The notes beneath the pieces are model-generated. The model saw nothing but the letters and a program-made list of their open reading frames with translations. It had not been told where the DNA came from and made no database searches. Shown in pieces: positions 2,576 through 16,767 of a stretch of DNA of 16,767 bases (positions are counted from its first letter, which is position 1; every line of letters starts with the position of its first letter). Origin of the DNA: a virus (taxonomy: Duplodnaviria; Heunggongvirae; Uroviricota; Caudoviricetes); the IMG/VR virus record IMGVR_UViG_2877263951_000002; one strand, 5' to 3'. Made by a program: the position numbers and the translations under genes.

Positions 2576-2917
2576 TCACCCACTGTGGTATATGCGTTGT
2601 GGTCTGCCAACTTTGCCGTGAACAATTTCAGCAATAATCAGATGGCGGCTGGCGCAATATTCAAGATAACGCCTGGCAGTGGTGCGGCTGATGGTCAGTG
2701 CCTGCGCCACCGTTTCTGCCGTATGTTGCACACCAGGCTCTTTAAACAGTTTTCGCACCGCGTTTAGCGTCAAGGGGTCAATGCCGGTCGGCAGTTCGTC
2801 TTTGGGTTCACCGCGAGCATAGGCATTAAACATCTCATCAATTTGCTTCTGGCTGGCGCTATCAATACTTTCCAGCATATGTTTACGCTGGCGGAAACGG
2901 GTTAGCGTTTGCCCCAG
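2576..2917 (-). pseudogene. dpiA: 3' half of response regulator gene dpiA (citB), interrupted by Mu-type insertion
   Basis: Minus-strand frame open from 2917 to stop TGA 2576-2578 (113 codons: LGQTLTRFRQRKHMLESIDSASQKQIDEMF...RRYLEYCASRHLIIAEIVHGKVGRPQRIYHSG), recalled as the C-terminal DNA-binding half of DpiA. The frame closes 3-4 codons into the Mu-type end (stop at 2927-2929). N-terminal receiver half is not in the window. Confidence 0.8.
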
Positions 2918-3088
2918 TGTATTGATTCACTTGAAGTACGAAAAAACCGGGAGAACATTGGATTATTCGGGATCTGATGGGATTAGATTTGGTGGGGCTT
3001 GCAAGCCTGTAGTACAAATTTTAGGCGTTAACCAATGAAACGCGAAAGATAGTAAAAAATTGCTTTTGTTTCATTGAAAAAACGAAAA
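2918..3088 (+). other. Mu-type attL with transposase end-binding sites (L1 2923-2944; L3-like 3067-3088)
   Basis: 2923-2944 TGATTCACTTGAAGTACGAAAA and 3067-3088 TGTTTCATTGAAAAAACGAAAA both fit the MuA end-site consensus TGNTTCAYTNNAARYRCGAAAA; 3036-3049 contains an ACGCGAAAG half-site-like motif. Confidence 0.7.
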
Positions 3089-3254
3089 ACAAAAACACTA
3101 TAAATCATTTCAATCATAGCTTCAAAAAACGTTCAAAACCGATAACAACCAGGCTGTCACCAAATGACTCATATCACAAATCAGCTCATGCCGTTTAGGT
3201 ATGTTACATGTGTGATTATGTGAGGTGAAGTATGTTTTAGCTGGCTCATGGTTG

Positions 3255-3764
3255 TTATACGGCTTTTTTCGCATCTTGTGGTTCCAACAAAGGAGCTACA
3301 GGCTCTTCCTGTTTATGAACACCATACATTGACAAAATCTCTTGGCGAGTTTCTGGAGGTAATTTATGCAGCGCCAAAGCTGTTTGTAGTGTTTGGCGAT
3401 CAATACCCAGCGTTGCCAATAGGGTGTCAACGGAGATGGAGGGGCGTTCTTGCATTAATCCGGAAAGCCCATATTTAGCCATGTTTAGCTCTATCTCTCG
3501 GACTTCATTTTCTCCTAGTTTATTGATTAACAGGGAGAACATTTTCAATGTATCAGCATTCATTTCTTCGATAGCAATTTTTTGCATAGCCGGTATTGCC
3601 GGGATATATTCAACCCCAGGCCCGCGACGCCCTTCTTGTGAACGCTTCGGCCATCCTTCTTTCTTTGCTCGTTTATGCACCCCCTGTATTGTCCCTGGCA
3701 TTCCATCCAGTTCAGTAATTTGTTTGGGTGTCATCCACTGGTTTATCTCATTTGCGCTTTTCAT
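3255..3764 (-). CDS. c: Mu/D108-type repressor (Repc-like)
   Basis: ATG 3762-3764, stop TAA 3255-3257, 169 aa. The C-terminal region (...RQEILSMYGVHKQEEPVAPLLEPQDAKKAV) closely resembles the Mu repressor C-terminus (...KEILSKYGIHEQES...KKAV) and the N-terminus has the MPG..GVH.RA...GW.KR winged-helix motif shared with MuA and Mu Repc. Divergent from Mu in detail, so D108-like by inference. Confidence 0.8.
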   Translation of the reverse strand: MKSANEINQWMTPKQITELDGMPGTIQGVHKRAKKEGWPKRSQEGRRGPGVEYIPAIPAMQKIAIEEMNADTLKMFSLLINKLGENEVREIELNMAKYGLSGLMQERPSISVDTLLATLGIDRQTLQTALALHKLPPETRQEILSMYGVHKQEEPVAPLLEPQDAKKAV

Positions 3765-3917
3765 AAACTAAGTTTACCAGATTTATCTATATAAAAATCA
3801 ATGGATTACAAAATAAACCACATTAACTGATATAAACCAGTTTTGTTTATTTGGTAATGTATAAAACAGATAATCAAGACGAATTATTTGTTTTGGTAAC
3901 CCTTTATCATACGCAAT
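3765..3917. promoter_or_regulatory. early operator/promoter region between divergent c and ner (expected Pe/Pc and repressor operators)
   Basis: 153-bp AT-rich spacer between divergently transcribed repressor and ner, the position of O1-O3, the IHF site and Pe/Pc in Mu. Individual operators were not delimited from sequence alone. Confidence 0.45.
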
Positions 3918-4172
3918 ATGGTTGGTGTGCGAAAGATGAGTAACGATTGGCATCGGGCCGACGTGATTGCGGCCCTCAAAAAAACAGGAACCCCTCTGGC
4001 AAAATTGTCCAGACGTTCAGGTTATTCAACCGGGACGCTTGCAAATGCATTAGTCAGGCCATGGCCTAAAGGTGAACGCATTATTGCTGACGCCTTAAAC
4101 ATGAAACCTGAGGAAATTTGGCCTAGTAGATATCTAAGGGATCACAATGAGAGAGTGGATATCAGCAATTGA
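3918..4172 (+). CDS. ner: Ner-like DNA-binding early regulator
   Basis: ATG 3918 (alternative ATG at 3936), stop TGA 4170-4172. [13 protein letters not shown]...TLANAL...WPKGE.IIA.AL...PE.IWPSRY matches the Mu Ner family along its length. The 3' end overlaps the A start by 26 nt. Confidence 0.75.
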
Positions 4173-5781
4173 ATGCATGGGTTTATCTGGTTTACCTGGT
4201 TCATTAATGGGGGTTCACAAAAGAGCTCAGAGAGAAGGATGGCTCAAGAGAAGAAGAGAAGGAATTAGAGGGGTTGCTTACGAATACCATATATCTTCTC
4301 TTCCTAACATTGCTCGAGCTGAAGTTTTGCTCCAACAAGGAAAATTTAAAACCAGTCAGGGATGTTTTGAAATCGCCCGCCCCACGCTGGAAGCTCATGA
4401 TTATGATCGTGAGGCACTATGGAGCAAATGGGATAAAGCCAGCGATTCCCAGCGCAGCCTGGCTGAAAAATGGTTGCCCTCAATTCAGGCCACAGACGAA
4501 ATGCTGAACCAGGGGATTTCAACGAAAACGGCTTTTGCGACCGTTGCAGGGCATTACCAGGTCAGCGCATCCACTTTGCGGGACAAGTATTACCAGGTAC
4601 AGAAGTTTGCGAAGCCTGACTGGGCGGCTGCACTTGTTGATGGACGTGGAGCATCCCGTCGCAATGTTCACAAAAGTGAATTTGACGAGGATGCCTGGCA
4701 GTTTCTGATTGCAGATTATCTGCGACCGGAAAAACCCGCCTTCCGCAAATGTTATGAGCGTCTGGAACTGGCAGTCCGCGAGCATGGCTGGAGTATTCCC
4801 TCCCGTGCCACGGCCTTTCGCCGGATTCAGCAACTGGACGAGGCAATGGTTGTTGCCTGTCGTGAAGGTGAACATGCACTGATGCATCTGATACCGGCAC
4901 AGCAGCGAACTGTGGAACACCTGGACGCCATGCAGTGGATCAACGGCGACGGTTATCTGCATAACGTCTTTGTACGCTGGTTTAACGGTGATGTGATCCG
5001 TCCGAAAACATGGTTCTGGCAGGATGTGAAAACCCGAAAAATTCTGGGCTGGCGCTGCGATGTGAGCGAGAACATTGATTCAATTCGCCTCTCGTTCATG
5101 GATGTTGTGACTCGCTACAGTATCCCGGAGGATTTTCACATCACCATTGATAACACCCGTGGTGCTGCGAATAAATGGCTGACGGGAGGCGCGCCCAATC
5201 GCTACCGCTTTAAGGTAAAAGAGGACGATCCAAAAGGACTGTTTTTACTGATGGGTGCGAAAATGCACTGGACAAGCGTTGTTGCCGGTAAAGGCTGGGG
5301 CCAGGCAAAACCTGTTGAACGTGCTTTCGGTGTTGGTGGGCTTGAGGAATACGTTGATAAGCATCCGGCACTGGCTGGCGCATATACGGGGCCAAATCCG
5401 CAGGCAAAACCTGATAACTATGGCGACCACGCTGTTGATGCAGAGCTGTTTCTGAAAACCTTTGCCGAAGGTGTGGCGATGTTCAATGCCAGAACAGGCC
5501 GTGAAACAGAAATGTGCGGGGGCAAACTCTCGTTTGATGATGTTTTCGAGCGTGAATACGCCAGAACGATTGTGCGTAAGCCAACCGAAGAACAAAAACG
5601 GATGCTGTTACTGCCTGCCGAGGCGGTGAACGTTTCACGCAAAGGCGAGTTTACGCTTAAAGTTGGCGGCTCCCTTAAAGGCGCGAAAAACGTTTATTAC
5701 AACATGGCATTAATGAATGCCGGAGTGAAAAAAGTTGTGGTCAGATTTGATCCACAGCAGTTACACAGCACGGTTTATTGA
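4147..5781 (+). pseudogene. A: Mu-type transposase A, 3'-truncated (544 of about 663 codons); stop codon supplied by IS600 terminus
   Basis: ATG 4147 with AAGGGA 6-7 nt upstream; protein near-identical to recalled MuA over residues about 60-544 (...[12 protein letters not shown]) and divergent in the first about 60 residues. After codon 544 the sequence becomes the IS600 end (TGA at 5779-5781). Confidence 0.9.
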
Positions 5782-5842
5782 GATAGCCTGAGTTTAACGG
5801 ACACTCCTTCCTGAAATAGAATGGCATCAGAAGGAGCTAATA

Positions 5843-6145
5843 ATGAGCAGAAAAACCCGACGTTACTCTAAAGAGTTCAAAGCCGAAGCTGTCAGAACGG
5901 TTCTTGAAAATCAACTTTCGATCAGTGAAGACGCTTCCCGATTATTCCTTCCTGAAGGCACTTTAGGACAATGGGTTACCGCCGCCAGAAAAGGGCTCGG
6001 TACTCCTGGTTCCCGCACGCTGGCTGAACTGGAATCTGAAATTCTGCAACTGCGTAAGGCGTTAAATGAAGCTCGCCTTGAGCGAGATATATTAAAAAAA
6101 GCAACAGCGTATTTTGCACAGGAGTCGCTGAAAAATACGCGTTAA
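5843..6145 (+). CDS. IS600 OrfA (transposase N-terminal HTH subunit)
   Basis: ATG 5843 with GGAG 8 nt upstream; 100 aa MSRKTRRYSKEFKAEAV...; contains the slippery run at 6094-6100. Confidence 0.85.
   Translation: MSRKTRRYSKEFKAEAVRTVLENQLSISEDASRLFLPEGTLGQWVTAARKGLGTPGSRTLAELESEILQLRKALNEARLERDILKKATAYFAQESLKNTR
6094..6100 (+). other. programmed -1 ribosomal frameshift heptamer A_AAA_AAA(G) of IS600 copy 1
   Basis: Zero-frame codons AAA AAA at 6095-6100 in orfA; the -1 frame is open from 6100 through the orfB ATG at 6181, as expected for OrfAB fusion transposase of IS3-family elements. Confidence 0.6.
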
Positions 6146-6180
6146 TCGAACAATGGCGACAACAATTTCCCATTGAAGCG

Positions 6181-6999
6181 ATGTGTCAGGTATTTGGTGT
6201 ATCCAGGAGCGGTTATTACAACTGGGTACAGCATGAACCCTCAGACAGAAAACAAAGTGATGAACGGCTAAAACTGGAGATTAAGGTGGCACATATCCGC
6301 ACTCGCGAAACATATGGAACCCGGCGGCTCCAGACGGAGCTGGCAGAGAATGGCATCATCGTTGGTCGTGACCGACTGGCATGTCTTCGTAAGGAGCTGA
6401 GGCTACGCTGTAAGCAGAAACGCAAGTTCAGAGCGACTACGAACCCGAACCACAATCTGCCAGTTGCGCCAAATCTGCTGAACCAGACGTTCGCTCCTAC
6501 AGCACCAAATCAGGTCTGGGTGGCGGACCTGACGTATGTTGCCACACAGGAGGGATGGTTGTACCTCGCTGGCATCAAAGATGTTTATACGTGCGAAATT
6601 GTCGGCTACGCCATGGGAGAGCGCATGACAAAAGAGCTGACAGGTAAAGCCCTGTTTATGGCGCTCAGGAGCCAGCGCCCACCTGCCGGGCTAATCCACC
6701 ACTCTGATCGAGGTTCACAGTACTGCGCATACGATTACCGGGTCATACAGGAGCAGTCTGGTCTGAAAACATCAATGTCGCGTAAAGGTAACTGTTACGA
6801 CAACGCTCCGATGGAAAGCTTCTGGGGAACGCTGAAAAATGAGAGCCTGAGCCACTATCGTTTTAATAACCGGGATGAAGCCATCTCAGTAATACGGGAA
6901 TACATTGAGATTTTCTACAATCGTCAGCGTCGTCACTCTCGTCTGGGGAATATCTCCCCGGCAGCCTTCAGGGAAAAATATCATCAGATGGCTGCTTAA
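6181..6999 (+). CDS. IS600 OrfB (DDE catalytic domain; normally expressed as OrfAB fusion)
   Basis: 272-aa ORF in the -1 frame relative to orfA; contains typical IS3-family DDE region (...WVADLTYV..., ...HSDRGSQY..., ...NCYDNAPMESFWGTLK...). Confidence 0.85.
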   Translation: MCQVFGVSRSGYYNWVQHEPSDRKQSDERLKLEIKVAHIRTRETYGTRRLQTELAENGIIVGRDRLACLRKELRLRCKQKRKFRATTNPNHNLPVAPNLLNQTFAPTAPNQVWVADLTYVATQEGWLYLAGIKDVYTCEIVGYAMGERMTKELTGKALFMALRSQRPPAGLIHHSDRGSQYCAYDYRVIQEQSGLKTSMSRKGNCYDNAPMESFWGTLKNESLSHYRFNNRDEAISVIREYIEIFYNRQRRHSRLGNISPAAFREKYHQMAA

Positions 7000-7042
7000 A
7001 AAAAGAACAAATGGTAGTGTCCGCTATTGCCAGTACACCTCA

Positions 7043-7241
7043 ATTCTTTGGCATTTTTTACCTCGTTACGCGCGTCTGTGGCTTTGCCAACGGATACTTC
7101 CGCGTGCGCACGAGTGAACCAGTGCGTGGCAACGTCTTCCTCCACAACATGACGGCCTTTAACAAACTCGCGCCGAGAACCGTCGGGAAGCGTGAGCACA
7201 AACGGGGTATGTACGTGTATTACTGCATCATTTTTTGCCAT
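7043..7241 (-). pseudogene. small phage gene downstream of the major capsid gene, 3'-truncated by IS600 copy 1
   Basis: ATG 7239-7241 with AAGGA 8 nt upstream; 66 phage-encoded codons (MAKNDAVIHVHTPFVLTLPDGSRREFVKGRHVVEEDVATHWFTRAHAEVSVGKATDARNEVKNAKE), then the frame runs into IS600. Function unknown. Confidence 0.4.
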
Positions 7242-7282
7242 CGGGTCATCCTTAATGGCCCCGCCAGGGGGCCATGTGGCTG

Positions 7283-8224
7283 TTAAATGCCATCAACGTA
7301 CGAAATGGTTTCTTTGTACACTGGCTCGACTGCACCCAGCTTGCCGTAGTAAGTGACGATCTGATACAGACCGCGATACTGCACCGGCACGCTCTGAAGC
7401 GGAACCAGCGGGTAGCGGACGTATTTTTTATCGTTGGTGTACGCAACCATGCGATCCTTATTCCCCACACCACGGCCTTTCAGCCATTTAACCGCGCGGA
7501 TATTCAGCGGAACACCGTTCTGGTGATAGCTGATGGTGTTGGTCTGAAGGTTCGTCAACAGGGACTGGTTACCTGCAGATGAAACGATGATGCTGGACAA
7601 CAGAGCAAACTGCTCAGGCGGGATCAGCAAATCACGCGGAACCACAGAGTAACCAGAAGCGGCCCACGCATCAGACAGCACCTGGTTAATGCTTGCGCGG
7701 ATTTCGTCCGGTGTTGAGGTTGCCCACGTTTTGGCAGCGTTGTTGACAGGCACGCCGTCCAGGGTAACAAGGCCTTTCAGGTTTAATGCGGAATCGCCAA
7801 CATATACCTGTTCATCGTTATCCATCTGCCATTTCAGTTGCATACCGTCATACTTCTGCGTATCAATCGGGCGGCCGACCTGCTGAGCAGCCTGCAATTC
7901 TATGACCGTCCAGCCAAGTTCCATCCCCCACAGGTTCAGCGGGTTACCGGATTTGCCGATATCCACGTTCACGCCAGCAATAGCGGTTGAGTCTTTGCCT
8001 ACCCAGTTTTTTCCATTCGGATTTGCGCCAGTACCCGCAGCGGCGAAGCTGGTATTCGTCCAGCTGGAAATGTCATCTGCGATGGAGGCGTCTTCACGCA
8101 GTTGAATATCGCGGCTCCAGGTGTACCCCACCAGTGGCAGGTTCAGCGTCTGGTCGAGTCTCTCCAGCTCCCCGATGAGAAAGGCACCAGAGCTGTCAAC
8201 GGTTGCCTGATCAAAAGTAATCAT
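7283..8224 (-). CDS. phage major capsid protein (DUF2184-like family by recall)
   Basis: ATG 8222-8224 with AAGGAA 7-8 nt upstream, stop TAA 7283-7285, 313 aa; position after scaffold-like and small genes in a head module; sequence recalled as a prophage major capsid family. Family assignment unverified. Confidence 0.65.
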   Translation of the reverse strand: MITFDQATVDSSGAFLIGELERLDQTLNLPLVGYTWSRDIQLREDASIADDISSWTNTSFAAAGTGANPNGKNWVGKDSTAIAGVNVDIGKSGNPLNLWGMELGWTVIELQAAQQVGRPIDTQKYDGMQLKWQMDNDEQVYVGDSALNLKGLVTLDGVPVNNAAKTWATSTPDEIRASINQVLSDAWAASGYSVVPRDLLIPPEQFALLSSIIVSSAGNQSLLTNLQTNTISYHQNGVPLNIRAVKWLKGRGVGNKDRMVAYTNDKKYVRYPLVPLQSVPVQYRGLYQIVTYYGKLGAVEPVYKETISYVDGI

Positions 8225-8368
8225 TCGTCTGTTCCTTAAATCTTCCAGGAAATTTCTGCATTGCCGTCAGCATCACCGGCACCTGTGAATTCAGCGTTGG
8301 TCAGCACCACGTTTTTGCCACTGACTGACGTGGACATGAATCCACCCAGAGGCACTTTGATGGATTCA

Positions 8369-8725
8369 TCAGTGGAGATCGCCTTTTTTGATAGTGCTGG
8401 CATCAAAATCAGAACCGAGATTAACGGTCACGTAGCCACGCTTCATGGCGTCGCCCGGGAAGTTCTTGCCTGTTCCCACCTGGCGAACCATGTCCGGCTG
8501 CGACGTGGTCGGATAAGGGCGCACGTAGATCCCCTTCACCTTGTCTGCGGTATCACCATCTGCCAGCGGCACGAAAAAACCGTCATCATCGTATTTACCA
8601 GCCAGGCCATAGGCAGCGAAGGCGTTATCGGATTTAAGGACCACCGGTTCGACGGTTAAGTCCTGCGGGCGAGAGACAGCCCCGGCAATGCCAACAGGCA
8701 TCCGGTACAGAAATACATTATTCAT
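8369..8725 (-). CDS. small phage head-module protein (possible decoration/structural protein)
   Basis: ATG 8723-8725 with AAGGG upstream, stop TGA 8369-8371, 118 aa; lies between scaffold-like gene and capsid gene. Function inferred only from position. Confidence 0.4.
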   Translation of the reverse strand: MNNVFLYRMPVGIAGAVSRPQDLTVEPVVLKSDNAFAAYGLAGKYDDDGFFVPLADGDTADKVKGIYVRPYPTTSQPDMVRQVGTGKNFPGDAMKRGYVTVNLGSDFDASTIKKGDLH

Positions 8726-8728
8726 TTT

Positions 8729-9172
8729 TTACCCTTTACGGTTTGCCCAGAATTCAGCGTTTTGTTTGTTCAGGGAAGCGATACTGGTCATGCCCATGTT
8801 TAGGCGCTGTGCATCGCCGGTGGTGGCGCGGGTGTTTCGCCCTTTGGCAACCTCAGACACGGCATTAAACGCCATGTCGACCGATTGTTTCGGTAATTTG
8901 CGGATATCCGCATCACCGACTATCTGGCGAACCAGCGTTTTGTCAGCAGAAGCCAGAACCTCGCGTTTGAACGCGGTCGGTTTCATCTTACGGCTCAGAT
9001 CGATACCCGGAACGATAACTTCGGCACGCCAGGCTGAGTCACCAGTAATCGTGGTTTCCTCTTCATCGTCCTCGCCGTCACCGGTCGGATTATCGTCAGG
9101 CTTATTATCGTTATCGCCCGTGGCATTTCTTTCCAGCTTAGCCAGCAGGGCTTTCAGTAATGTTTTGAGGTC
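8729..9172 (-). pseudogene. 3' part of phage scaffold/maturation-like gene interrupted by IS600 copy 2
   Basis: Minus-strand frame is open from the IS600 boundary (9172) to stop TAA 8729-8731 with no upstream start of its own (...DLKTLLKALLAKLERNATGDNDNKPDDNPTGDGEDDEEETTITGDSAWRAEVIVPGIDLSRKMKPTAFKREV...). It continues in phase with the 10437-11216 part across the 3-bp duplication. Confidence 0.6.
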
Positions 9173-9236
9173 TGAGGTAGCCTGAGTTTAACGGACACTC
9201 CTTCCTGAAATAGAATGGCATCAGAAGGAGCTAATA

Positions 9237-9539
9237 ATGAGCAGAAAAACCCAACGTTACTCTAAAGAGTTCAAAGCCGAAGCTGTCAGAACGGTTCTTG
9301 AAAATCAACTTTCGATCAGTGAAGGCGCTTCCCGATTATCTCTTCCTGAAGGCACTTTAGGACAATGGGTTACCGCCGCCAGAAAAGGGCTCGGTACTCC
9401 TGGTTCCCGCACGCTGGCTGAACTGGAATCTGAAATTCTGCAACTGCGTAAGGCGTTAAATGAAGCTCGCCTTGAGCGAGATATATTAAAAAAAGCAACA
9501 GCGTATTTTGCACAGGAGTCGCTGAAAAATACGCGTTAA
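9237..9539 (+). CDS. IS600 OrfA
   Basis: 100 aa; differs from copy 1 OrfA at 3 residues (Q6, G30, S35 versus R, D, F). Confidence 0.85.
   Translation: MSRKTQRYSKEFKAEAVRTVLENQLSISEGASRLSLPEGTLGQWVTAARKGLGTPGSRTLAELESEILQLRKALNEARLERDILKKATAYFAQESLKNTR
9488..9494 (+). other. programmed -1 frameshift heptamer A_AAA_AAA(G) of IS600 copy 2
   Basis: Same position as in copy 1 (offset 3394). Confidence 0.6.
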
Positions 9540-9574
9540 TCGAACAATGGCGACAACAATTTCCTATTGAAGCG

Positions 9575-10393
9575 ATGTGTCAGGTATTTGGTGTATCCAG
9601 GAGCGGTTATTACAACTGGGTACAGCATGAACCCTCAGACAGAAAACAAAGTGATGAGCGGCTAAAACTGGAGATTAAGGTGGCACATATCCGCACTCGC
9701 GAAACATATGGAACCCGGCGGCTCCAGACGGAGCTGGCAGAGAATGGCATCATCGTTGGTCGTGACCGACTGGCACGTCTTCGTAAGGAGCTGAGGCTAC
9801 GCTGTAAGCAGAAACGCAAGTTCAGAGCGACTACGAACCCGAACCACAATCTGCCAGTTGCGCCAAATCTGCTGAACCAGACGTTCGCTCCTACAGCACC
9901 AAATCAGGTCTGGGTGGCGGACCTGACGTATGTTGCCACACAGGAGGGATGGTTGTACCTCGCTGGCATCAAAGATGTTTATACGTGCGAAATTGTCGGC
10001 TACGCCATGGGAGAGCGCATGACAAAAGAGCTGACAGGTAAAGCCCTGTTTATGGCGCTCAGGAGCCAGCGCCCACCTGCCGGGCTAATCCACCACTCTG
10101 ATCGAGGTTCACAGTACTGCGCATACGATTACCGGGTCATACAGGAGCAGTTTGGTCTGAAAACATCAATGTCGCGTAAAGGTAACTGTTACGACAACGC
10201 TCCGATGGAAAGCTTCTGGGGAACGCTGAAAAATGAGAGCCTGAGCCACTATCGTTTTAATAACCGGGATGAAGCCATCTCAGTAATACGGGAATACATT
10301 GAGATTTTCTACAATCGTCAGCGTCGTCACTCTCGTCTGGGGAATATCTCCCCGGCAGCCTTCAGGGAAAAATATCATCAGATGGCTGCTTAA
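9575..10393 (+). CDS. IS600 OrfB
   Basis: 272 aa; differs from copy 1 OrfB at 2 residues (R versus C; F versus S). Confidence 0.85.
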   Translation: MCQVFGVSRSGYYNWVQHEPSDRKQSDERLKLEIKVAHIRTRETYGTRRLQTELAENGIIVGRDRLARLRKELRLRCKQKRKFRATTNPNHNLPVAPNLLNQTFAPTAPNQVWVADLTYVATQEGWLYLAGIKDVYTCEIVGYAMGERMTKELTGKALFMALRSQRPPAGLIHHSDRGSQYCAYDYRVIQEQFGLKTSMSRKGNCYDNAPMESFWGTLKNESLSHYRFNNRDEAISVIREYIEIFYNRQRRHSRLGNISPAAFREKYHQMAA

Positions 10394-10436
10394 AAAAAGA
10401 ACAAATGGTAGTGTCCGCTATTGCCAGTACACCTCA

Positions 10437-11216
10437 GTCATCATCACTGTCGCCGGTTGGATCTCCGCCCATCTCTGGTGCTTTGTCCGGTAGTGGTTGC
10501 TGCGGGGACAGGTTGATGTTGAGATTAACGCCCTGCGGCAAATCCCCCTCATCTCCTGTAACCGATGCGGGAGCCGACTCCACCAGTTCGTTCATGGTGT
10601 CGGCATCTCCTGTCTTGATGGCCGCACGCATGCGGTTCCACCAGTTTTTCTTTTGATTTGCCATTGTGTCTCTGTCTCCAATTGCACAACGATTTCCGGC
10701 TCTGCCTTTAGGGACAAGAGCCACATGGTTTCCGGTAATATCGACCTGCTCGGCTTTACCTGGCTCGGTCTGCTCGTACTCCGCGTCATAGCCGCACGAC
10801 ACTTCGCGCAGGCCATCTTCGATAAGCTGAATGGCGCTTTCGTCTTTGACGATAAGGTCAGCCAGCATCAAATCAGACTGCTCACCCGTCCCGCGCCGGA
10901 CATTCTGGAGGTGCCCGACAGCAAGCACTTTCCAGTTCTCGGGATTTACCAGCCGCACATTCCCGTTTTCATCTTCAGGATGCAGGATCGTGATGCTCAT
11001 CCCTTCGAATGAGGCAAGCGTGGCCGGATGGAATACCTGCTCAGGAGAACGCGTGACGACTATTTCAACGAACTTATCGGGTTTCAGTTTTGGCAGGTCA
11101 TCAGCACCATAGAGCTGCTTACCTGTTCGTCCTATCGGCACGTCTTTGCACAGCAACGAGCCGTCAGCCAGGCGGTATCGGGTTTCCCCGAGCCTGGTCT
11201 CAAAAAAGTATTTCAT
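10437..11216 (-). pseudogene. 5' part of phage scaffold/maturation-like gene (DUF2213-like by recall) interrupted by IS600 copy 2
   Basis: ATG 11214-11216; 260 codons ending ...PTGDSDDD, where the last D codon (GAC) is the target duplication and the stop TGA (10434-10436) is the IS600 terminus. Confidence 0.6.
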
Positions 11217-11219
11217 GGG

Positions 11220-12002
11220 TTATGCTGCCCTTTTCATTGCGAATGGAACGCGAACAAACACGATCTCTTTATAGCAGCGGCAGTTTGGCAGCTCGCCCGC
11301 GTGGCCGGTCATGCCGTCCAAAGTTGGAGGTGAATCCCAGCGGACGAATTTACCTTTCATGTGATCGTGGGAATCTCGGACATCGCCATCATCGGCTGTA
11401 CGCCAAATATAACCATCCGAGCCAATAGCTATCGCTCGGGCCATATCCAGCGCGCCCGTTGCTCTTCCCAGTTCCGTTCGGGCAATCAGATCGGCCCTAG
11501 ACTTAGCAACATCGCCGGTAGATGCAATCTCTTTAGCAAACTGCTCCGCCCGACCACCGGTGACAACAGCCTCTATCGCTTTGTTCTGGATGTCGTACAC
11601 CCTGTCTGCGGCCTCGAGAGGCAGAGATTTGATGTACTTGACCTGTTCGGCGATGATGGATTGCATCACCTGGCCCACAGGAGCGCTTTCCACAAGATTG
11701 CGGAGCTCGCGACTGATGTTCTTGCTGTGTTGCCGCCAAACTTTCTCGTTCTGCCGGGTTAGGTCCGCAGTAAAGTTTTCCGCGACCTTTGTCGCCCAGG
11801 GGGTGATGATTTCACTGTAACGCTCCAGCGCCGCAATAATTTCCGTGATACTGTCATTTGAACCATCGTAGCGACCATTTACGATGTCTCCGACCGCCCT
11901 CGCTATCCTGCGTAGGCTGGTTCGATACCGGATTTCCGCCTGACGGCTCCTGCGGTTCGTCATCAGGTTCGCCGATGCCGGGCGGCGCTTCATCTTCGGC
12001 AT
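11220..12002 (-). CDS. phage head morphogenesis protein (Mu F / SPP1 gp7-like minor head protein)
   Basis: ATG 12000-12002 (alternative ATGs at 11993 and 11963), stop TAA 11220-11222, 260 aa; C-terminal region with ...HAGELPNCRCY... typical of the Mu F-like family; lies directly after the portal gene. Start uncertain; overlaps portal 3' end by up to 149 nt. Confidence 0.65.
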   Translation of the reverse strand: MPKMKRRPASANLMTNRRSRQAEIRYRTSLRRIARAVGDIVNGRYDGSNDSITEIIAALERYSEIITPWATKVAENFTADLTRQNEKVWRQHSKNISRELRNLVESAPVGQVMQSIIAEQVKYIKSLPLEAADRVYDIQNKAIEAVVTGGRAEQFAKEIASTGDVAKSRADLIARTELGRATGALDMARAIAIGSDGYIWRTADDGDVRDSHDHMKGKFVRWDSPPTLDGMTGHAGELPNCRCYKEIVFVRVPFAMKRAA

Positions 12003-13320
12003 TCTCGATGTCCTCGTTGGTAATGGATGCCCCTATGCCGGTTACGTCAGAATTTTCTCGCAAATCAGTCATAGCGGCTTTCAGTGTCATCAGACCATCA
12101 CCCAGCGCCGTACTGATTGCGTTGGTGGTGTTTAACGCCACCGTTGAGCGATCGACATCAGACATTTGCCAGAGCGGGTTAAACTCAAACGTGAAATCGT
12201 CCGGCAGCGGCTTGCCAAGTTCCGAACGATGCATGATGTCCAGTATCCGCCGCACCGGAAGACGTAAACGCCTCTCCTGCAACGAACTGATGCGATCGTA
12301 ATAGTTGGCAAGGTCTGCATCACCGGTAGAAAATCCTTTCGGGGACTGTCCGAACAACCGCACCAGTGGGATACCAACAGCGCCACTAATCTGTTCTGCA
12401 AACTGCGAAAGGATGTCATCCAGACCACTGAAGCTGTACTGATGGGTTTCAAACTTATCCCGCGAGTCCATGAGCGTCATGCCTTCATTACTCTGGAACT
12501 GTCGAATCAGGTCGATATTCTTCAGCAACGCTTCATACGCAGGACCACCAAGTGCGATAAGCTCGCGTAGCTTCTCCACGCTGTAGGTACGCAAATGCGC
12601 CTTGTAGACCAGCTGCGCCGCGCCGACAGTAGCGCTGTCGAACGCGGTAAGACGATCCCAGATACGCTCTACAACCGACATTCCCCATTCGTTCTCGGTC
12701 ATCTTCTGCTGAAATGGCAACGTGACGCCATCAAAGCGAATCAGGCGACTGTGATGAATGCGCCAGGCAGGAATTCCCGTTGCTGTGGTCACCACATCGT
12801 AAAACTCAGGTTTACCCAGGTCCGGCCCCATATCTTTAATGCGGCGGGTCAGTGCCGGGTCGACCATCCAGCGGTCGAGCGGGAGAATCCCCTTAAACTT
12901 GCCCTTACCGATGGTTTCGGGTCGCAGCGGGGTCATTGGTGCCTGCCCCTCAATCATGATGAAACCCACCGCGCCGCCGTAGAGGCGCGACCATTTCAGC
13001 ACGTCATTCAGCGCATCCCAGATTTGCAACTCATCCAGTTGTGATTCGAGAATGCCACGATCTTTTGCATCAATTTCCGAAGTGATGCGAATGCCTTTGC
13101 GGGTCATATCATCCGGGATAGCATCGACTGCTTCGCCGATGATCCAGGATGAACGATAGGACCATTCCACCAGCATGCGGTTACGACTGGTGAAATTAGC
13201 CCGGTAGGTGGATGCTGAGTGCTGGTTAGGTGTCTGCATCCCTACTCGGGCAATAAAATTCTCATAACCATCAGCTGTGGCCTGCACAGTTCGCCGCAGG
13301 GCTTGTTTGTTTCGTGCCAT
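11854..13320 (-). CDS. phage portal protein (DUF1073-like by recall)
   Basis: ATG 13318-13320 overlapping the TerL stop (ATGA), stop TGA 11854-11856, 488 aa with acidic C-terminal tail; position between TerL and head morphogenesis gene. Confidence 0.7.
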   Translation of the reverse strand: MARNKQALRRTVQATADGYENFIARVGMQTPNQHSASTYRANFTSRNRMLVEWSYRSSWIIGEAVDAIPDDMTRKGIRITSEIDAKDRGILESQLDELQIWDALNDVLKWSRLYGGAVGFIMIEGQAPMTPLRPETIGKGKFKGILPLDRWMVDPALTRRIKDMGPDLGKPEFYDVVTTATGIPAWRIHHSRLIRFDGVTLPFQQKMTENEWGMSVVERIWDRLTAFDSATVGAAQLVYKAHLRTYSVEKLRELIALGGPAYEALLKNIDLIRQFQSNEGMTLMDSRDKFETHQYSFSGLDDILSQFAEQISGAVGIPLVRLFGQSPKGFSTGDADLANYYDRISSLQERRLRLPVRRILDIMHRSELGKPLPDDFTFEFNPLWQMSDVDRSTVALNTTNAISTALGDGLMTLKAAMTDLRENSDVTGIGASITNEDIENAEDEAPPGIGEPDDEPQEPSGGNPVSNQPTQDSEGGRRHRKWSLRWFK

Positions 13321-14053
13321 CAGGCCTGTCTCCCCAGCTGTTCCCAGATATCCAGCGATGTATCGATTGGCGCGAAGGCCATAATGAATGCATCAGCAAC
13401 GTTTGGTGACGGTATCTCGCGTTTTGCGAGGTCTTTTTTACTTTCGACCATCACACGTCCGTTACGGTCGAAATCACGATGAGGTGTTGTCAGTTCCAGT
13501 TTCAGCTTTTCAAGCAACGGACAACGAGAATCTATGCTGATCAGCTCATCCACAGGATACTGTTCTCCGTTGTTAATGGCGTTAAACGTATTTCTGAAAC
13601 GGTCAGCCACCATGCCTGAGCCTTAAGATTTGCGAAAAAGTCTTTGTTGGGGATGCCGTTGTACTCGTCATCTGGCTCATGCACACCAGCACCGGCGTTA
13701 AACCTCTGGTAATTCACACGTCGCGCGTATGCGTTCTCGCTCTTCCGGTCAGCGTTAATTTCAGAGAATTTAGCACCGGCAGACGCACCAACACCGATAG
13801 AGTCGTAAACAATATCTGCTTCACGCTCCAGCGCCGCCTGATAAGTACGCTGGCAGCTCTTCAGTAATTCATCTTCTTTGGCCTTCCATTCGTCGGCCCA
13901 GAAAACAACGGATCCGTGACGGTAAACGTTAGCGCACTTATCTGTACCACTGTCAGCCACGTCAAAGCCAATACGCTTTCTTCCACTGGGTTCGAAATTT
14001 AACGTTTTGTGCGCATCCACTGCGGCTTCTATCCAAGACAGTTTGATGATTGC
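13320..14053 (-). pseudogene. terminase large subunit, 3' (nuclease-domain) part; separated from its 5' part by IS2 and carrying a 1-bp frameshift near 13604-13612
   Basis: Two overlapping minus-strand frames: 14053-13544 (...NLKAQAWW LTVSEIR... stop 13541-13543) and 13622-13323 (...VADRFRNTFNAINNGEQYP...RVMVESKKDLAKREIPSPNVADAFIMAF..., stop TGA 13320-13322). Together they resemble a single TerL C-terminus. Confidence 0.7.
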
Positions 14054-14064
14054 TGGATTTGCCC

Positions 14065-14970
14065 CTATATTTCCAGACATCTGTTATCACTTAACCCATT
14101 ACAAGCCCGCTGCCGCAGATATTCCCGTGGCGAGCGATAACCCAGCGCACTATGCGGATGCCATTCGTTATAATGCTCGAACGCCTCTGCAAGGTTCTTT
14201 GCTGCCGTTAACCCGTCTGGTTTGGGCATGATACTGATGTAGTCACGCTTTATCGTTTTCACGAAGCTCTATGCTATTCCGTTACTCTCCGGACTCCGCA
14301 CCGCCGTGTTCTTCGGTTCAAGTCCCAACATCCGGGCGAACTGGCGTGTTTCATTAGCCCGGTAGCATGAACCATTATCCGTCAGCCACTCCACTGGAGA
14401 CGACGGAAGATCGTTGCCGAAGCGGCGTTCCACCGCTCCCAGCATGACGTCCTGTACTGTTTCACTGTTGAAGCCGCCGGTAGTCACCGCCCAGTGCAGT
14501 GCCTCACGATCACAGCAGTCCAGCGCGAACGTGACACGCAGTCTCTCTCCGTTATCACAGCAGAACTCGAACCCGTCAGAGCACCATCGCTGATTGCTTT
14601 CTTTCACGGCCACTCTGCCTGTATGTGCCCGTTTCGATGGCGGTACAGCAGGTTTTCGCTCAAGCAACAGCGCATTCTGGCGCATGAGCCGGTAAACACG
14701 TTTGGCATTGATCGCAGGCATACCATCAAGTTCTGCCTGTCTGCGAAGCAGCGCCCATACCCGACGATAACCATACGTGGGCAGCTCTCCGATAACATGG
14801 TGTATACGGAGAAGCACATCCGTATCATCAGTGTGACGACTGCGGCGGCCATCCATCCAGTCATCGGTTCGTCTGAGAATGACGTGCAACTGCGCACGCG
14901 ACACCCGGAGACAACGGCTGACTAAGCTTACTCCCCATCCCCGGGCAATAAGGGCGCGTGCGCTATCCAC
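14065..14970 (-). pseudogene. insD: IS2 insD (OrfB, DDE transposase domain) with in-frame TAG at 14269-14271
   Basis: GTG at 14968-14970 (the -1 frame entry point), frame open to TAG at 14269-14271 (233 codons), then the same frame continues for 67 more InsD-like codons to TAG at 14065-14067 (...[19 protein letters not shown]...NRCLEI). Recalled canonical InsD has Glu at this codon. Confidence 0.8.
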
Positions 14971-15293
14971 TTTTTTGCCCGTCCATATTCAACGGCTTCT
15001 TTGAGGAGTTCATTTTCCATCGTTTTCTTGCCGAGCAGGCGCTGGAGTTCTTTAATCTGCTTCATGGCGGCAGCAAGTTCAGAGGCAGGAACAACCTGTT
15101 CTCCGGCGGCCACAGCAGTAAGACTTCCTTCCTGGTATTGCTTACGCCAGAGAAATAACTGGCTGGCTGCTACACCATGTTGCCGGGCAACGAGGGAGAC
15201 CGTCATCCCCGGTTCAAAGCTCTGCTGAACAATTGCGATCTTTTCCTGTGTGGTACGCCGTCTGCGTTTCTCCGGCCCTAAGACATCAATCAT
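14928..15293 (-). CDS. insC: IS2 InsC (OrfA, HTH subunit)
   Basis: ATG 15291-15293, stop TAA 14928-14930, 121 aa [26 protein letters not shown]...; the 15 extra N-terminal residues in the ORF track are not used. Slippery heptamer A_AAA_AAG on minus strand at 14970-14976. Confidence 0.88.
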
Positions 15294-15384
15294 CTGTTCT
15301 CCAATGACTAGTCTAAAAACTAGTATTAAGACTATCACTTAAATAAGTGATACTGGTTGTCTGGAGATTCAGGGGGCCAGTCTA

Positions 15385-16079
15385 ATTGCCGCATCATCAT
15401 CAGACTCCGGAACGCCCTCATACACATGTTTAAAACCATCCGGATCACGGCGTCGCGCCGCGTCGATAACCTTAAGCATGGTGTCAGACAGAAACGGATT
15501 TTCGTCATAGTTAATTTTGCGGATGAGAGTGCCTTCGGGCGGATCAACAACGAAGTTGCGCCAGACGAAATCAGTAACAAGTCCGGGGTTGAATATGAAC
15601 CAGCATTCCGAACCCTCTTTACGGATCGTTGGCTCCAGAATTTTCCACTGGTATTCCGTCAGTGCGTGGGCTTCTTCCAGCCACAACATATCGATCCCCT
15701 CCAGTGACTTAATTTCTTCGATGTTGCGCCATAATCCATAAAAAACAAATTCCGAGCCAGTAACCCGGTTAATGATTTTGTTGTTCAGAATACGGAAACG
15801 GTGCCGCAGACCAAACCTGTCTATCTGAATTTTGAGCAGGGTATACACCGACTCTTCGATTTTATTCTGGATCTGACGGGCACAACAAAAACGCAGGGTG
15901 TATTTATTCGACAGAAATATGGCAATGCCAGCGGCATCCCATGATTTTGACGATGACCGACCACCATAAAGCACTTTGTTACGTGCCCGCATAGTCCAGA
16001 AACTACGTAAAGCCGGATTCAGCGTCGGTTTGGATGTCAGAGTAGAAGTCATTGAGGTCACGCTCTCCATTGCCATCAT
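15385..16079 (-). pseudogene. terminase large subunit, 5' (ATPase-domain) part, interrupted by IS2
   Basis: Frame open from candidate ATGs at 16091/16079/16076/16070/16052 (16079 chosen: AGGT 5 nt upstream) down to the IS2 boundary; contains a Walker A-like motif (VLYGGRSSSKS). The frame continues in phase into 14053 after removing IS2 and one copy of ATTGC. Start is uncertain; the TTG at 16160 in the ORF track is not used. Confidence 0.65.
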
Positions 16080-16767
16080 CAATACCTGCATCACGGCGAA
16101 GACGATCAGCCTCCAGAGACACCTTATCAGTGGCGGCCTTGCGGTAGGCTGTATCAGCAAATATTTTTCCTACCGTCGCAAGCGTGCCAACGATGGACTC
16201 AATACGAACTGTATTGCGCATCATTGCTTTCTCGGCGGCGCTGATATTTTCAATCAGCATCTTCCTTTCCTGGTCCCCATTAGCATCTTCCAGCGACACC
16301 AACCACCGACCAATATTCTCTGCAGCGACAAGGTTGTTAGCACGAAGGCGAAATAATTCGTCCTCGAGCGTCAACGCTTTAGCGTCCTCTATCACCTCAT
16401 CTTTGAGCAGAAGGCGACGGGCATAACCACCGTGTTTTAATGCCTGCTGGTTACCGGGTTGGAATGGGTTAGTCGGGGGATCGGTACGCATTCCGCGTAT
16501 CGGTTTCGTATCCGGTGTAGATTCTGTTTTTAGTTGCGTACTTTTTTGTGTAAGGCCAGTAATGGCAGGCTTTCTGCTGGTACGCACTTTCCTTTTTTGC
16601 GTACCATTTTTGCAAACCTGCGTACCGCCACTGCGTGCCCAATCAAGCTTTTTGGCCCTCTTCCTGATAGCCCCTTCTGTAACGCCGTATTTCTCGCCTA
16701 TATCACGGAGGCTAAGGACTCCGGCCCGGTATGCCGATTCGATGGCCTCCCAGTCCGGTTTTGCCAT
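16003..16767 (-). CDS. putative terminase small subunit (HTH DNA-binding N-terminus)
   Basis: ATG is the last three bases of the window (16765-16767), so the true start could lie further upstream; stop TAG 16003-16005; 254 aa; immediately upstream of and overlapping TerL; N-terminus (MAKPDWEAIESAYRAGVLSLRDIGEKYGVTEGAIRKRAKK) looks like an HTH. Assignment by position and weak recall. Confidence 0.5.
   Translation of the reverse strand: MAKPDWEAIESAYRAGVLSLRDIGEKYGVTEGAIRKRAKKLDWARSGGTQVCKNGTQKRKVRTSRKPAITGLTQKSTQLKTESTPDTKPIRGMRTDPPTNPFQPGNQQALKHGGYARRLLLKDEVIEDAKALTLEDELFRLRANNLVAAENIGRWLVSLEDANGDQERKMLIENISAAEKAMMRNTVRIESIVGTLATVGKIFADTAYRKAATDKVSLEADRLRRDAGIDDGNGERDLNDFYSDIQTDAESGFT

Follow-up and report, generated by a model that had tools for sequence, protein, structure and literature searches.

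A left-end remnant of a Mu-like prophage in Shigella flexneri dpiA, ended by IS600, retains an open c repressor gene

The stretch of DNA analysed here (16,767 nucleotides, in the following called the window) is S. flexneri chromosome in which a Mu-like prophage is inserted inside dpiA. What the window holds of this prophage is its Mu-type left end, which spans 2918-5781 and consists of attL, the repressor gene c, ner and the transposase gene A, the latter ended at codon 544 by IS600 (Table 1). The element is probably a left-end stub that was eroded by IS600 and in which the open reading frame of c persists neutrally; if c is expressed, it would repress phages of the same type. The first-pass annotation had proposed a domesticated immunity module. 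The word "domesticated" is not borne out, because the clade is too young for decay of open reading frames, because the genes have been lost in the form called Type B below, and because no other part of the element has changed as much as the c-ner control region.

Table 1. Features of the window (positions refer to the window, 5' to 3')
Feature	Position	Strand	Remarks
Host dpiA, 3' fragment (codons ~114-226)	2576-2917	-	severed by the prophage insertion; Pfam PF20714, DpiA-like HTH
Mu-type left end, attL	2918-3254	+	91.7% identical to Mu bases 1-447; start = TGTATTGATTCAC
c repressor gene, 169 aa	3255-3764	-	Pfam PF02316, Mu DNA-binding domain, E = 4.5e-12
c-ner divergent control region	3765-3935	.	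operator-like repeats ATAAACCA / TGGTTTAT
ner, 78 aa	3936-4172	+	upstream ATG at 3918 would give 84 aa; Pfam PF13693, Ner-type HTH, E = 4e-29
A' transposase, 544 codons	4147-5781	+	Pfam PF02914, E = 1e-134; gene cut by IS600
IS600 copy 1	5779-7042	+	orfA 5843-6145, orfB 6181-6999; 99% identical to annotated IS600
Head and packaging module of an unrelated ipaH-type prophage	7043-16767	-	capsid 7283-8224, portal 11854-13320, terminase
IS600 copy 2	9173-10436		interrupts the ipaH-type prophage; GTC duplication on both sides, i. e. a simple insertion

The exact c protein was found in the S. flexneri chromosomes CP000266 and CP026788 and in others, and dcuC-pagP always adjoined. The dpiA fragment is colinear with dpiA of E. 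coli IAI1 up to base 5917 of L065; the prophage breaks the gene at codon ~113. The last five bases of the fragment, CCCAG (2913-2917), are the Mu-type target-site duplication and recur at attR in the two-ended relatives described below. The N-terminal fragment of dpiA was located by exact look-up; the search with the full-length DpiA protein returned full-length homologues only and no N-terminal fragment. In the S. flexneri genomes examined, dpiA is inactivated.

In attL, matches to the transposase-binding sites L1 (2933-2944) and L2 (3037-3048) are present and the third site, L3, is degenerate. The consensus RAARYRCGAAAR occurs twice, compared with 0.17 occurrences expected. DNA identity to Mu is 91.7% at 2918-3363 and 97.7% at 4327-5780. 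Between 3363 and 4327 the comparison with Mu gave a single weak match (67.7%), which lies within ner (3945-4134), and the comparison with D108 and SfMu gave no DNA match from 3363 to 4315. Identity to these two phages picks up again at 4315, at about A codon 57-61. The block made up of c, ner and A residues 1-60 is unlike Mu, D108 and SfMu, and the remainder is ~98% Mu. A mosaic of the D108 kind, as suggested by the first-pass annotation, is thus supported by the DNA identities and by the protein identities given below: an immunity cassette comprising c, ner and the ~60 N-terminal residues of A has been exchanged. This cassette is a putative further immunity type, distinct from those of Mu, D108 and SfMu and previously uncharacterised. 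The window contains no Mu sequence past Mu position 2964, and attL is its only Mu end; B and the right end are absent from it, as had been stated before.

The N-terminus of the c protein matches the solved DNA-binding domain of the Mu repressor (1G4D/1QPM; phmmer E = 2e-10) and also the I-alpha domain of MuA (1TNS). Identity of c to the first 60 residues of A' is 40%, in keeping with what is expected of proteins with a common operator/enhancer specificity. Over the whole protein c is 41% identical to the repressor of Mu, 30% to that of D108, 29% to that of SfMu and 35% to that of PhiR68_1. The protein search for relatives of c yielded a small family only, with identities of 85-92%, and every full-length member of this family has 169 aa. 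One relative, 85% identical to c in a gap-free alignment and also of 169 aa, is the repressor of a near-complete Mu-like prophage of this immunity type in E. coli UMNF18. Over residues 6-53, which make up most of the DNA-binding domain, c does not differ from this repressor, and the Salmonella allele differs there by T17A. The Salmonella c alleles are genes of equal length (510 nt) in which the C-terminal tail ...PQDAKKAV is conserved. One c allele occurs at three different Salmonella/other chromosomal sites together with full-length A, B, kil and gam, and IMG/VR holds 36-kb contigs that carry c of the same immunity type. This indicates that the arrangement is the native architecture of a mobile lineage. 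Since the relatives in complete or multi-site prophages also have 169 aa, c is a complete open reading frame which is not cut short relative to functional homologues, and in this respect the first-pass annotation was right.

The exact c protein is present in at least 1000 contigs, named S. flexneri (6687 index blocks), and the 90% cluster of c comprises at least 94 distinct protein variants, missense included. Partial c proteins (139-168 aa) in draft assemblies, from contigs that end inside the 5' end of c, were considered as possible IS disruptions; the contig ends match the window cleanly at 3723 and 3675 and contain no foreign bases. More likely they reflect an assembly break beside the AT-rich control region. 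A c protein of nominally "85% identical" sequence (P0049) was set aside because the assembly of this locus from which it stems is riddled with frameshifts.

The ner gene is 99% identical to ner of UMNF18; both have a 12-residue C-terminal extension and a 26-nt overlap with A. At the protein level, identity to Ner of Mu, D108, SfMu and PhiR68_1 is 49-60%, with Mu at 60%. Regarding the earlier description of ner, the complete open reading frame stands and the start at 3918 does not: by the equivalent start annotated in UMNF18, translation likely begins at 3936.

Compared with 662-666 residues in Mu, D108, SfMu and PhiR68_1, A' has 544 codons. Its alignment with these transposases ends exactly at ...HSTVY, and A' terminates at the TGA with which the IS600 inverted repeat begins. 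From residue ~75 onwards A' is essentially identical to all four proteins; residues 1-60 diverge. The DDE residues (D268, D335 and E391 in the window) lie in invariant alignment columns. Pfam families for Mu I-alpha, I-gamma, DDE and a partial C-terminal barrel were found in A', which keeps I-alpha, I-beta, I-gamma, the DDE core and most of II-beta and has lost ~30 residues at the end of domain II together with the entire domain III. Set against the known structures, A' falls 60 residues short of the end of the transpososome construct 4FCY (469 of 529 covered) and 29 residues short of the end of the core structure 1BCM/1BCO (298 of 327 covered). The alignment end at residue 544 and this structure coverage agree with the claim that A has kept its DDE core and lost its C-terminal domain. 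Domain III of MuA is involved in tetramer assembly and in the contacts to MuB and ClpX. The element had been called immobile, and with domain III gone this proved correct: the element cannot move with a transposase that is devoid of domain III, with B missing and without a right end in the window.

For the end of A at codon 544, the truncation at IS600 was described correctly, a simple insertion of IS600 was not. IS600 copy 1 is flanked by TAT and ATT, i. e. it has no direct 3-bp target duplication of the kind that marks a simple insertion of this IS3-family element with TG...CA ends. The missing duplication indicates that this is a rearrangement junction and not a simple insertion. In other S. 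flexneri genomes the left junction of this IS600 at A codon 544 recurs, and the right flank takes three different forms there. The prophage whose head and packaging genes form the right flank in the window is unrelated to Mu; its intact copy carries ipaH and is located between ybhA and pgl. IS600 copy 2 is strain-specific, and in one strain the DNA between both IS600 copies is deleted.

At the same dpiA site, other S. flexneri genomes carry an 8.3-kb two-ended form with the CCCAG duplication. Its order is attL-c-ner-A'-IS600-tail-fibre genes-gin'-com-mom-attR, followed by CCCAG, the rest of dpiA, and dpiB. This form is represented by L080 (identical to L099), L089, L097, L098 and L114, i. e. 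by two IMG/VR contigs and several NCBI genomes. Two Mu ends with a 5-bp duplication were found in L080, L089 and L097, with CCCAG on both sides, and not in the window with its attL only. The tail-fibre genes of the two-ended form are S', U', U and S in G(-) orientation, and gin is deleted. Both the dpiA-attL junction and the A codon-544/IS600 junction are common to the window and the two-ended loci; by these junctions, the window form is a further derivative of the two-ended remnant. As the two-ended forms have neither the 3' end of A nor B, both were already lost in the ancestor. These copies show the whole element, and no full-length A is found on it, in line with the first-pass annotation.

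Two more forms were found. In Type B, the Mu left end reaches to window position 3191 only and is followed by IS600 and the right part, so that it has no c, ner or A'; of the 24-25 long contigs examined that carry the right end, 17-19 are of this type. In Type C, the right end is joined via IS1 to the integrase end of the ipaH-type prophage. A pair of inversions (through IS1, then through IS600) was considered as the origin of the window and Type C junctions. It predicts mom and U' in window-type genomes, which was not confirmed. In three window-type IMG genomes, probes for A 3', B and U' gave no proviral contig. Among contigs over 1 Mb, the exact Mom protein was found in far fewer complete genomes than c (26 vs 103 index blocks). 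This evidence is indirect and points against the right end being kept elsewhere in window-type genomes.

The probable history is that a Mu-like phage transposed into dpiA in an S. flexneri ancestor and thereby created the CCCAG duplication. IS600 would then have inserted at A codon 544, and an IS600-associated deletion from codon 544 to the tail-fibre genes would have left the 8.3-kb two-ended remnant. In the window lineage, another IS600-mediated rearrangement would have swapped the right flank for part of the other prophage.

The description of the module as intact holds at the level of the open reading frames only. The control region is the fastest-changing part of the element: 9 of the 23 variable events in the Mu-derived left part, i. 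e. a 9-bp deletion and 8 SNPs, fall within 73 bp of it (binomial p = 2.7e-9). The deletion is lineage-specific and lies between 3855 and 3856, and the substitutions cluster at 3824-3896. The main S. flexneri form was compared with nine other copies, seven of them from other hosts (most being complete or near-complete prophages) and the rest being the two-ended S. flexneri forms. In all nine, 205 bp separate the start of ner from the 5' end of c and include GTTTATNTG twice in tandem; this distance has shrunk to 196 bp in the main S. flexneri form, the deletion having taken out one of the two repeats. A hexamer core changed in steps from TTGAG, which is found in 7/7 other-host copies, to TTGGG in the two-ended form, TTTGG in the main S. 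flexneri form and TTTTG in the window. Another motif, TTGATA, is kept in 9/9 other copies and has become TTGGTA (A-to-G) in the main S. flexneri form.

The hexamer changes fall where the early promoter of Mu sits relative to c. Promoter-like matches on the c strand are weak (9/12), and the position of the best of these sites (3933-3906) is conserved in UMNF18. With sigma-70 consensus scans of the control region no convincing placement of the early or the repressor promoter was obtained; thus it is a matter of hypothesis which promoter the mutations strike. The changes in the control region could mean that a switch under no constraint is decaying or that it is being tuned. The hexamer steps and the 9-bp deletion could be adaptive tuning of expression instead of decay.

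The ancestors of the S. flexneri lineages are 150-900 years old, with rates of 6.5-9.5e-7 per site per year (PMC4522646). About 0.2-1 substitutions are expected in c per lineage, and an open frame is therefore what the null hypothesis predicts. The dead A' frame (1632 nt, three times longer than c) is equally open in all window-type loci compared; the one A' frameshift, of 1 bp, is found in the two-ended L080. In the clade of dpiA remnants, c has 0 nonsynonymous and 3 synonymous changes vs 5 nonsynonymous and 2 synonymous changes plus the frameshift in A', a contrast which is underpowered (one-sided p = 0.06-0.08) and partly biased, since L006-L015 were retrieved by the exact c sequence and amino-acid variants are thereby hidden. 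Two of the five nonsynonymous A' changes are at positions that are invariant in Mu, D108, SfMu and PhiR68_1. The contrast is a weak hint that c may be under purifying selection.

This hint could be taken as a sign of a domesticated module in which selection keeps c, with or without ner, against phages of the same type and in which mutations that weaken the early promoter lock the repressor on. The identical c protein in the great majority of S. flexneri assemblies (the at least 1000 contigs mentioned above) would fit such a module, as would the exact match of residues 6-53 to the UMNF18 repressor (with T17A in the Salmonella allele) and the repeated hits in one and the same hexamer, which is invariant in the seven other-host copies. 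Yet time alone predicts that the reading frames are intact, and the selection test suffers from the low power and the choice of loci described above. On the longer branch to the S. flexneri c allele, the ratio of nonsynonymous to synonymous changes is 14:13 compared to 21:33 in relatives and active phages (p = 0.34), i. e. it is not below that of active phages. The missense changes among the at least 94 c variants of the 90% cluster also speak against such selection, and so does the frequency of Type B. A sizeable minority of S. flexneri genomes is without c-ner-A', so that retention of the genes across lineages was not found, and the Type B genomes show that c is dispensable in nature. We therefore consider a domesticated module improbable. 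For the intact c frame, we infer, the best explanation is that the clade is young, not that selection keeps it open, and any immunity would be a by-product. More generally, an intact open reading frame in a clade that is only centuries old should not be taken as evidence of domestication.

If the leftward promoter of the stub still fires, c would bind the operator repeats via its winged-helix domain. Bound c would keep ner-A' silent and would presumably act in the same way on superinfecting Mu-like phages that share its immunity type, but leave Mu, D108 and SfMu unaffected. Such immunity is plausible. It would not reach SfMu, to whose repressor c has the low identity given above and for which plaque formation on serotypes Y and 3b of S. 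flexneri is on record (PMC4406740).

A different outcome would be that the module is dead or locked in the Ner state, analogous to the "anti-immune" state of lambda Cro, and that c is an unexpressed relic which confers no immunity. Cells without the lethal early and late genes would survive a flip to the Ner state, and the c promoter would then be silenced by Ner or by lesions. Repression of the repressor promoter by Ner is established in Mu. Lesions of the required kind could be the 9-bp deletion, the A-to-G change in TTGATA and the further SNPs in the control region of the main S. flexneri form, and the weakness of the promoter-like matches on the c strand also agrees with a silent c. However, c itself is free of disabling mutations, the best c-strand site has kept its position in common with UMNF18, and the hexamer changes at the position of the Mu early promoter could equally weaken transcription of ner and favour c. 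On balance a dead or Ner-locked module appears unlikely.

The same changes would take on another meaning if selection had acted on the switch of the crippled prophage, i. e. if the hexamer steps and the 9-bp deletion had disabled early ner-A' transcription and locked the repressor on. Most S. flexneri would then carry a constitutive, non-inducible immunity gene against Mu-like phages of Salmonella and E. coli. We regard this as very improbable and keep to the neutral persistence of c in an IS600-eroded stub.

The remnant adds a putative further immunity type among enterobacterial Mu-like phages. It also provides a dated, stepwise natural series in which the dismantling of a transposable prophage by IS elements can be followed in a young pathogen, and the natural c-plus and c-minus lineages of S. 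flexneri suit a test of phage protection by remnant repressors. The practical value is modest. In the literature searched, no description of the remnant in dpiA, of the distinct c or of the IS600-driven structural series was found.

In comparison with Mu (AF083977), the order and orientation of attL, c, ner and A are the same, and DNA identity is 92% in attL and 98% over A codons 61-544. The fold family of the c DNA-binding domain, the C-terminal ...KKAV tail of c and the DDE triad are conserved as well. The differences are the divergent c (41%) and ner (60%), A residues 1-60 and the operators, and the absence from the window of A residues 545-663, of B and of all that follows as far as the right end. 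Defective lambdoid prophages are a second point of comparison. They are immobile remnants which, with an intact repressor, may give immunity against phages of the same type. The stub resembles them in being immobile with an intact repressor, and in both an anti-immune state is possible when the lethal genes are gone. Unlike these prophages, it has the c/Ner switch of a transposable phage instead of CI/Cro.

With D108 (GQ357916) and SfMu (KP010268) the element shares the swapped cassette of c, operators, ner and the A N-terminus that binds enhancer and operators, in an otherwise Mu-like genome (PMC4406740). In contrast to these phages, whose repressors are only 29-30% identical to the c of the window, the relatives of its cassette are found in E. 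coli UMNF18 and in Salmonella prophages, and its Ner has the 12-residue extension that overlaps A. Southern blots with an SfMu probe had shown hybridising bands common to most S. flexneri strains tested, from which remnants were inferred (PMC4406740); the EcoRV fragments predicted here (2.8 kb and 3.8 kb) match the reported bands only in part. A "Cryptic Mu-phage protein com" of S. dysenteriae is listed in UniRef. The stub in dpiA is like the cryptic Mu remnants of Shigella, i. e. those related to SfMu in S. flexneri and com/mom in S. dysenteriae, which are likewise partial Mu-like prophages fixed in chromosomes.

In every S. flexneri locus examined, the Mu-like prophage splits dpiA, which encodes a two-component response regulator, at about codon 113. 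Since the gene is divided in all of these loci, DpiA should be non-functional there. The 127-aa 'DpiA' annotated in hundreds of assemblies is composed of the N-terminal half of the protein and 13 residues from the Mu right end.

The repressor gene c, ner and the truncated transposase gene A' are not retained throughout the species; they were wholly lost in many S. flexneri genomes (L093, L106, L108 and similar loci). In these c-less loci, the Mu left end is reduced to about 274 bp and is followed by IS600 and then by the right part of Mu. Where the genes are present, closely related S. flexneri copies differ at a hot spot between c and ner (window 3824-3896), which comprises eight SNPs and a 9-bp deletion. 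One hexamer of this control region was altered stepwise among the S. flexneri copies and is invariant in seven copies from other hosts.

Contigs of several independent draft assemblies (L016-L021) stop within the 5' end of c, exactly at window position 3675 or 3723. No foreign sequence was found at these contig ends. Possibly, low coverage beside the AT-rich region caused the breaks, or an insertion there may have remained unassembled.

Coordinates of features in the window and in compared loci
Feature	Window	Compared locus	Remark
dpiA part	2576-2917	L065 (E. coli IAI1) 5576-6256	intact gene in L065
IS1 in two-ended copies	3146-3154 (site in L097/L098)	L089 3153-3920	768 bp, 9-bp duplication
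9-bp deletion, c-ner control region	between 3855 and 3856		
IS600 copy 1 variant sites	5859-6264		
c-less form, example		L108 4592-6169	

At six sites, clustered in orfA and at the beginning of orfB, the window's first IS600 copy, which ends A', departs from the sequence that this copy has in most other strains, and its inverted repeat is TGAGATAG instead of TGAGGTAG. The differences look like the result of gene conversion between IS600 copies. Only a subset of strains carries the second IS600 (window 9173-10436; compare L014), which interrupts a scaffold/protease-like gene in the adjacent prophage. In one strain (UGYS01000001) the segment between the two IS600 copies, window 7043-9172, is deleted.

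In the neighbouring prophage, the terminase region (window 13541-16160) is fragmented into several short ORFs, and another IS3-family element is present at this place in related loci. Together, these sequence features indicate that this prophage is also defective. An intact copy with ipaHb lies between ybhA and pgl in L022 (NZ_CP065613.1, FDAARGOS_944), a genome with many IS600 copies. Its RefSeq label is E. coli, but the genome resembles that of a Shigella or enteroinvasive strain.

One S. flexneri genome (L115, PSSR01000001.1) encodes an identical Mom protein in an apparently full Mu-like prophage adjoining flg genes, in which tail and baseplate genes are present. It thus looks as if complete Mu-like phages sharing the right end of the remnant coexist in S. 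flexneri.

At the left end, an IS1 separates attL from the 3' end of c in some copies that retain both prophage ends (L089, L097, L098). Compared with Mu, the A-run following binding site L1 (window 2945-2950) is one base shorter, and the third binding site, L3 (window ~3078-3089), has a T-to-A change at a consensus pyrimidine position.
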